32,000 nucleotides of DNA. Source: Candidatus Jordarchaeales archaeon. Its GTDB lineage: Archaea; Asgardarchaeota; Jordiarchaeia; Jordiarchaeales; Freyrarchaeaceae. Location of the stretch: the NCBI GenBank assembly GCA_038858525.1, contig JAWCFL010000001.1, positions 107,074 through 139,073 of the forward strand. Reading direction: 5' to 3'. The first letter of the stretch is position 1. The number at the start of each line of letters is the position of its first letter. Of this stretch, positions 2,736-3,057 are shown one piece after another. Below the pieces are notes generated by a model. That model did not search any database, was not told the DNA's origin, and saw only the letters and a program-made list of their open reading frames with translations. A program made the translations under genes and the position numbers.

Positions 2736-2777
2736 TAGTCCGAAAGCTCTCTTAGGCAACGTGGGGGCGTGGTCTAG

Positions 2778-2807
2778 GTATCGGTGGCTTGCCCTCCGAT
2801 AGGAGAA
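2778..2807 (+). other. tRNA intron 1 (position 15/16, 30 nt)
   Basis: Intron helix TATCGG/CCGATA (2779-2784/2796-2801), bulges AG^G and AA^C, central helix GTCT/GGAG (3 pairs plus one G-G mismatch): relaxed BHB. Confidence 0.8.
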
Positions 2808-2817
2808 CTTGGTATGA

Positions 2818-2848
2818 ACCCGATAGGTGCTCTCCTACCGGGGTGCAA
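2818..2848 (+). other. tRNA intron 2 (position 24/25, 31 nt)
   Basis: Hairpin CCCGaTAGG/CCTAcCGGG, central helix GTAT/GTGC (2812-2815/2843-2846), bulges GA^A and AA^T. Confidence 0.8.
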
Positions 2849-2849
2849 T

Positions 2850-2870
2850 ACCCTCAAAGAGGGGCGTGAG
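2850..2870 (+). other. tRNA intron 3 (position 25/26, 21 nt)
   Basis: After intron 2 removal: outer helix GG/CC, central helix TATG/CGTG (2865-2868), bulges AT^A and AG^T, intron helix CCC/GGG, giving a complete hBHBh' motif. Confidence 0.78.
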
Positions 2871-2887
2871 TCCTGCCTGGGGCGCAG

Positions 2888-2923
2888 AGCAGTGTAGAAC
2901 CACTTTCTGCACTGCTAGCGTAA
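2888..2923 (+). other. tRNA intron 4 (position 42/43, 36 nt)
   Basis: 12-bp hairpin AGCAGTGTAGAA/TTCTGCACTGCT, central helix GCGC/GCGT (2882-2885/2918-2921), bulges AG^A and AA^G. Removal restores anticodon stem GCAG+G. Confidence 0.85.
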
Positions 2924-3057
2924 GCGGTCCCGAGTTCAAGTCTCGGCGCCCCCACCAAATTCAGAATTTTCGCGTTTTGACAAGGAAATTCTTTAAAGGA
3001 AAATTTTAAAGTGGACTTGGTAGGAGTTAGCTTAAAGAGGTTACGTGGTGAATTATT

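Follow-up and report, generated by a model that had tools for sequence, protein, structure and literature searches.

Cleavage of archaeal pre-tRNAs follows an established rule, in which the endonuclease recognizes the bulge-helix-bulge (BHB) motif, a 4-bp helix lying between two 3-nt bulges, and cuts each bulge between its second and third base. In pre-tRNAs of the Thermoproteales, nested or closely spaced BHB introns are reportedly removed sequentially, an experimental result that Tocchini-Valentini et al. are said to have published in PNAS in 2009. The locus described here appears to resemble those pre-tRNAs in having BHB or BHB-like introns at non-canonical sites, in being served by a broad-specificity (alpha-beta)2 endonuclease, and in having a second motif that forms, at its best, only after the first intron has been removed and the exons have been ligated. 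The Thermoproteales genes have at most three introns and belong to the Crenarchaeota, whereas the gene described here comes from an Asgard archaeon and has four introns (five in its Freyarchaeia orthologs). Among the multi-intron pre-tRNAs of the Thermoproteales, we know of no pair of introns at adjacent positions separated by a one-base exon.

Reviews give three introns as the maximum for a tRNA gene (PMC4033280; PMC8450103), and where introns lie close together one may need to be removed before the second BHB can form (PMC8450103). The principle of ordered splicing is already known, and a one-base exon is its extreme case; an archaeal tRNA with such an exon was not found in the literature searched. 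Introns occur in 92-95% of the tRNA genes of Freyarchaeia and Atabeyarchaeia (Valentin-Alvarado et al. 2024, PMC11291895), with up to four introns per gene tabulated (PMC11291895, Supplementary Data 4). The smallest exon that we noticed between annotated introns in the table of that study is 7 nt, apart from one Atabeyarchaeia-1 row, a tRNAscan entry for 'Gly ACC', where two predicted introns lie 1 nt apart and were counted by the authors as one. Pre-tRNAs of Cyanidioschyzon merolae contain several BHB introns that are removed in a reproducible order following motif stability (Soma et al. 2013, PMC3728597); there each BHB folds independently and the order is kinetic, whereas the motifs described here share bases and are mutually exclusive. 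A single-nucleotide exon lies between two group II introns in a fungal mitochondrial rnl gene (PMC12308204), and a spliceosomal one in Arabidopsis is attributed in that paper to Guo and Liu (2015). Both resemble the present case in that one base of mature RNA is flanked by introns, but they differ in chemistry and recognition, and neither depends on an endonuclease and a ligase, the pathway by which an unjoined mononucleotide would be lost.

Here, we describe a tRNA-Pro(GGG) gene from a Candidatus Jordarchaeales archaeon, located in a window of 32,000 nt (the whole stretch of DNA that was analysed; all positions below refer to it unless a locus is named). In our main reading, to which we assign a probability of about 0.7, the gene is interrupted by four BHB introns, U2849 is by itself an exon, the BHBs of the introns on either side of it overlap, and splicing takes a path in which intron 2 is removed before intron 3. 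The features of the gene are listed below, where H denotes the central helix of a BHB (pairs formed out of four) and h and h' its flanking helices.

2763-2957, plus strand: tRNA-Pro(GGG) gene with encoded CCA, five exons and four introns (called by ARAGORN on the spliced 77 nt)
2763-2777, plus strand: exon 1, tRNA positions 1-15 (the D-loop intron site is the same in paralogs)
2778-2807, plus strand: intron 1, 30 nt, in the D-loop, relaxed BHB (H 3/4, h' 6 bp)
2808-2817, plus strand: exon 2, 10 nt, D-loop and 3' D-stem up to A24
2818-2848, plus strand: intron 2, 31 nt, between tRNA positions 24 and 25, full BHB in the precursor
2849, plus strand: exon 3, a single T, tRNA position 25, pairing with G10 (from the junction in genome G002, paralogs and invariance)
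2850-2870, plus strand: intron 3, 21 nt, between tRNA positions 25 and 26 (exactly absent in G002)
2871-2887, plus strand: exon 4, tRNA positions 26-42, anticodon GGG at 2879-2881
2888-2923, plus strand: intron 4, 36 nt, between tRNA positions 42 and 43, relaxed BHB
2924-2957, plus strand: exon 5, tRNA positions 43-76, with the T-arm, 3' acceptor strand, A73 and CCA

The exons are thus 15, 10, 1, 17 and 34 nt long. The 5' end of the locus reads GGGGGCG and the 3' end consists of its complement followed by A and CCA, with a normal T-arm just 5' of the 3' strand. When the four introns are removed, the resulting 77-nt sequence is called as tRNA-Pro(ggg) by ARAGORN. In its unspliced form, no tRNA is reported at the locus by ARAGORN or by Rfam at the gathering score (none in the window); at a loose threshold the Rfam tmRNA model weakly aligns with the acceptor stem and T-arm only. 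The intron mode of ARAGORN returns a tRNA-Leu with a 105-nt intron, which is a false call. Introns 1 and 4 have relaxed forms of the BHB, with H at 3/4 or with additional bases separating h' and H, and would use bases other than those of introns 2 and 3, so that their removal could be independent. Intron 1 was found in nine of nine orthologs and is annotated at the equivalent site in the Freyarchaeia ortholog. For intron 4, in which h' and H were read by hand, H is formed by 2882-2885 and 2918-2921 and a bulge by 2922-2924, and the anticodon stem CCTGC/GCAGG is restored only by removal of 2888-2923. An 8-mer, CCGATAGG, is common to introns 1 and 2 (2797-2804 and 2820-2827); similar wording occurs in orthologs of the same family and is absent from the Freyarchaeia-like ones. 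This sharing could reflect either intron duplication or chance.

Orthologs of the gene are present in all four other genomes of the family and in four of the six genomes of the sister family, and eight of nine genomes of the order (Jordarchaeia/Freyarchaeia) retain the one-base-exon arrangement with its invariant T. When public genomes were scanned for the pattern, 30 loci were returned, only 7 of them real orthologs and none additional to those above; these belong to Candidatus Jordarchaeia/Jordarchaeum and to Candidatus Freyarchaeota, including the complete genome CP147778.1, and the bacterial matches are due to chance. Identity to the window is 92-97% in the exons, 39-75% in the introns and 19-47% in the flanks, and two differences in the acceptor stem between the families, at 2767/2949 and 2768/2948, are both compensatory. 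Because the exons are conserved and the acceptor-stem changes compensate one another, the locus is a gene under selection. This bears on the possibility that the locus is a decaying, unexpressed pseudogene whose introns are meaningless insertions, a reading that would account for the failure of standard tRNA finders on it. Exons that remain nearly identical across two families beside diverged flanks speak against decay, as do the compensatory changes, the covariation of the intron hairpins and the finding of no other tRNA-Pro(GGG) in the genome (BLAST returned no close paralog); we give the pseudogene reading the least credence of any considered here. A second ARAGORN call of 'Pro ggg', on contig C27, is without a TTC loop or a GG D-loop and is spurious.

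The boundaries of the one-base exon were established by comparison with sequences in which one or both neighboring introns are absent. In G002, a genome of the same genus, the aligned locus (L005:1547-1593) reads AAT|TCCTGCC, lacking exactly 2850-2870 with nothing else missing. Since no alternative 21-nt deletion yields the G002 sequence, both ends of intron 3 are fixed. Two proline tRNA paralogs have no intron at this site: tRNA-Pro(UGG) of the organism's own genome reads CTTGGTATGATTCC and tRNA-Pro(CGG) of the complete Freyarchaeia genome reads TTTGGTATGATTCCTGG, each unbroken at the predicted junction, and GGTATGATTCC is uninterrupted in both. Because the paralogs run through without interruption, the predicted product, GGTATGA plus T plus TCC, is the normal sequence of the family, and because they show a T at position 25, that position is T, as a G10-U25 pair. 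T2849 is invariant in 9 genomes, and the first base of intron 2 (2818) is A or G. The original prediction that T2849 is the sole exon base separating introns 2 and 3 is therefore upheld by the G002 junction, the uninterrupted paralogs, the spliced product and the invariance, and it is these, not BHB geometry, that carry the weight of the case; geometry is weak by itself, with dozens of H=4 matches arising by chance in 211 nt. As far as comparison of sequences can tell, the one-base exon is real.

Other ways of dividing the same region were considered. Because A2817 and A2848 are identical, the sequence is compatible with an intron 2 at 2817-2847 followed by a 2-nt exon, AT; this register has an H of only 2/4 (by hand) and is missing from the list of matches with H>=3 in the BHB scan, and register 2818-2848 has 4/4 with exact 3-nt bulges. 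Removal of 2818-2870 as one unit gives a 76-nt product that ARAGORN accepts, yet a base lying between the D-stem and the anticodon stem is lost and the result is contradicted by G002 and the paralogs. Alternatively, introns 2 and 3 could leave together through cuts at 2818|2819 and 2870|2871, in which case position 25 would be A2818 (G in most orthologs) and T2849 would be intronic. The fold needed for this, with the helices TATG/CGTG and GG/CC in the present gene, has an H of 4/4 and an h of 2 bp in every ortholog, lies locally only 1.7 kcal/mol above the intron-2 BHB, and gives a product of the same length. Its h', however, is merely 2 bp, and G10 would face A or G, whereas the paralogs and G002 have T at position 25; moreover, T2849 is the invariant base and 2818 is the one that varies between A and G. 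We regard joint removal of 2819-2870 as highly improbable, and retain T2849 as exon 3.

The two introns that border T2849 have BHBs drawing their 5' strand from the same short exon, with exon 2 contributing 2812-2815 to intron 2 and 2811-2816 to intron 3; within it, 2810-2817 are invariant across all orthologs, and 2808 and 2809 are variable. The BHB of intron 2 has exact geometry in the precursor. Its H is formed by 2812-2815 and 2843-2846 (GTAT/GTGC, 4/4), its bulges are GAA (2816-2818) and AAT (2847-2849), and h', within 2819-2842, is at least 4 bp. Across orthologs this BHB is 90.5% paired, compared with at most 52% for slid controls; its central helix is 100% paired in 8 distinct ortholog sequences, and two pairs in h' are compensated. 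An RNAalifold consensus of the intron-2 region gives a rod-like hairpin in a slipped register, which supports the hairpin rather than the cut sites. The BHB described for intron 3 in the original prediction (GG/CC, TATG/CGTG, and bulges ATA and AGT) was reproduced when A2817 was joined to T2849. After intron 2 is removed in this way, h is formed by 2811-2812 and 2872-2873, H by 2813-2816 and 2865-2868 (4/4), the bulges by 2817+2849+2850 and by 2869-2871, and h', within 2851-2864, has 4 bp. The TATG exon strand never varies, and the central helix of intron 3 shows no two-sided covariation. A perfect 5-bp helix, GGUAU/AUACC (2811-2815/2848-2852), which is present in the minimum-energy fold predicted for this precursor and pairs U2849 with A2814, was set aside; it is not conserved in G002 or in the Freyarchaeia-like genomes.

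Both BHBs draw on 2812-2817 and on 2849, and U2849 is bulged in each, as the third bulge base in the BHB of intron 2 and the second in that of intron 3. Because they share these bases, the two BHBs cannot form simultaneously, and therefore a ligation must fall between the two excisions, so that cutting and joining take place twice; were ligation to wait until all four sites had been cut, the lone uridine would be lost. That two successive rounds are required by the structure follows from the sequence and from the established cut rule of the endonuclease. The path that we propose would begin with cuts by EndA at 2817|2818 and 2848|2849, after which RtcB would join A2817 to U2849. The RNA would refold after this ligation, EndA would then cut at 2849|2850 and 2870|2871, and RtcB would join U2849 to U2871. 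U2849 would thus serve initially as the 5' end of a 3' exon and subsequently as the 3' end of a 5' exon, and would at no point be free.

That intron 2 is removed before intron 3 is probable, judging from pairing across orthologs and from modeled folds. The tail 4-mer of intron 3 varies among orthologs (CGTG, CTTA, CGTA, CATA, CATG, CACG and CGAG); scored over 32 ortholog cells, it pairs with TATG of the exon in 29, as against 18 with the tail of intron 2, the partner that it would have in unspliced RNA. TATG ranks second among the 256 possible 4-mers for pairing with intron-3 tails (mean 12). Changes from G to A in the tail keep the pair with U2815 and break the pair with C2846. In the local precursor, the BHB of intron 2 has an energy of -20.6 kcal/mol and the unspliced intron-3 fold one of -6.9 kcal/mol, which is about 14 kcal/mol worse because the intron-2 stem must melt. 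In seven of eight orthologs, the intron-2 BHB costs 1.1 to 4.9 kcal/mol over the local minimum and the unspliced intron-3 fold 7.2 to 13.2 kcal/mol.

According to the original prediction, the BHB of intron 3 cannot exist before intron 2 is excised, and splicing is an obligatory cut-ligate-refold-cut cascade. The former claim is overstated, since an inferior BHB-like fold (H 3/4, h 3 bp, h' 4 bp) that leaves the cut sites unchanged can be drawn in unspliced RNA, where the tail of intron 2 (GGG-TGCA-AT) mimics exon 2 (GG-TATG-AT). The best BHB of intron 3 does need exon-2 bases 2811-2817 joined to T2849; the dependence is not absolute. For the cascade, two rounds are required and removal of intron 2 at the outset is favored, but "obligatory" is unproven in view of two genomes. 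In one of these, G001, the unspliced intron-3 fold costs about the same as the intron-2 BHB. The other, G002, has precisely lost intron 3 and kept intron 2, and its gene corresponds at the DNA level to a splicing intermediate without intron 3 but with intron 2. The change in G002 is by parsimony a loss, because the other genus and the other family have both introns; if the loss occurred by way of partly spliced RNA, intermediates of the 'wrong' order would be implied.

Consequently, a reading has to be weighed in which the one-base exon and sequential splicing both hold and the order is not fixed, the poorer unspliced fold of intron 3 being accepted by a broad-specificity (alpha-beta)2 enzyme. 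The existence of that fold with correct cut sites, its cost in G001, and the gene of G002, whose intron 2 has a good stand-alone BHB, all favor this reading, as does an enzyme with a loop that permits relaxed motifs. Set against it are the need to melt the intron-2 stem in the window, the pairing of the unspliced central helix in little more than half of the ortholog cells, and the penalty of 7-13 kcal/mol for the unspliced fold in all orthologs but one of the eight. We consider splicing in either order unlikely, though a more serious contender than the pseudogene or joint-excision readings, and prefer the path in which intron 2 is removed before intron 3. A competing helix, GTGC/GCGT, had also been predicted to cause incorrect cuts in unspliced RNA. 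The helix does exist, at -18.2 kcal/mol versus -20.6 kcal/mol for the intron-2 BHB, but incorrect cuts are unsupported: it does not have BHB geometry, since one of its sides has a bulge of 4 nt and the other lacks a flanking helix. In folding of the intermediates, which had been proposed as a check, the BHB of intron 3 was not the minimum-energy fold; with intron 2 already removed, it still costs 2.6-9.3 kcal/mol more than the local minimum. In minimum-energy folds of the whole precursor and of the intermediates none of the BHBs is present, and such folds were used for relative costs only. Because no BHB is the minimum-energy fold, the enzyme must select or stabilise these structures.

The genome encodes two EndA paralogs and RtcB (601 bits). 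The alpha-like EndA gene lies on contig C3 (L021:1474-2049), the beta-like one on contig C43 (L022:1189-1785) and the RtcB gene on contig C1 at 35280-36587. The first EndA paralog aligns end to end (residues 6-191) with the catalytic alpha subunit of Aeropyrum pernix (3p1z_B, E 1.6e-48), keeps the catalytic His, and contains the Crenarchaea-specific loop, in which RKPK aligns with EKPR (K44, R46), so that Lys and Lys occupy the positions of A. pernix K44 and R46. This loop, with K44 within it, confers broad specificity on the enzyme (PMC3241643). In the second paralog, Ala stands in place of the His and the loop is missing as a gap of 9 residues; this paralog is apparently beta-like, as expected for a structural subunit. 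On the basis of these alignments, the organism likely has a broad-specificity (alpha-beta)2 EndA, for which assembly into a heterotetramer is presumed.

A stricter interpretation of the ordered path is that the single U acts as a strictly enforced checkpoint, in which RtcB ligation creates the next EndA substrate and U2849 switches from one exon end to the other, and that the arrangement goes back to the common ancestor of Jordarchaeia and Freyarchaeia, has persisted ever since and is found again in other tRNAs of the genome. We hold this interpretation only tentatively, at somewhat less than even odds. If it is true, cutting and joining would be tightly coupled in these Asgard archaea, and the mononucleotide exon would never be released. 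Whether or not the order is strictly enforced, the gene marks a lower limit of exon size for endonuclease-plus-ligase splicing and provides a natural substrate in which simultaneous cutting at two introns would discard a tRNA base, so that cutting, ligation and refolding must alternate. The order of archaeal tRNA splicing and the coupling of EndA and RtcB are thereby directly testable with one short transcript.

The same arrangement alters the annotation of a published gene. Freyarchaeia tRNA 21, Pro GGG, at 1798836-1799053, is a direct ortholog of the gene in the window and is listed with three introns (PMC11291895). Removal of the three published introns leaves 135 nt, which ARAGORN rejects as a tRNA; adding two introns that flank the single T gives five introns and a 77-nt tRNA-Pro. 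The table thus leaves the introns on both sides of the ortholog's single T unannotated in an organism of the same order, and 58 bases of the gene had remained unexplained. Its revised structure is as follows.

L061:37-254 (G006 = CP147778.1, 1798836-1799053): Freyarchaeia ortholog with five introns, in the D-loop, at 24/25, at 25/26, in the anticodon loop/stem and in the T-loop

The count for one gene is now five in Freyarchaeia, compared with four in the published table, and the additional T-loop intron is common to all four Freyarchaeia-like genomes. Such interruptions explain why genes of this kind are overlooked or wrongly scored by standard tRNA finders and in the published annotation. 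The intron-rich genes of Asgard archaea attract interest in connection with how eukaryotic gene structure arose; nothing in this analysis links the tRNA introns described here to spliceosomal ones. The site of intron 4 is at positions 42/43 in the Jordarchaeum-like family and at 37/38 to 39/40 in the Freyarchaeia-like genomes, and near-copies of CGCAG occur at both ends of this intron (window 2882-2924 compared with L061). From these sequences, the difference in site looks like intron sliding by five bases.

Few intact tRNA genes could be recovered from the genome as a whole, which is 2.09 Mb in size and 92.7% complete. The Rfam tRNA model finds 5 tRNAs and ARAGORN 11, several of them false, and a crude genome-wide search located an intact T-arm beside an intact acceptor strand in only 8 genes. 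Because standard tools recover so few intact genes, nearly all tRNA genes of this organism are taken to be interrupted. A candidate tRNA-Tyr(GUA) of 220 nt with several inserts lies on the plus strand of contig C3 (G000 C3:78516-78735). The tRNA-Pro(UGG) gene, on the plus strand of contig C1 (G000 C1, about 76180-76360), apparently has three introns, in the D-loop, at the start of the anticodon stem and in the T-loop, and the site of its D-loop intron is that of intron 1 in tRNA-Pro(GGG).
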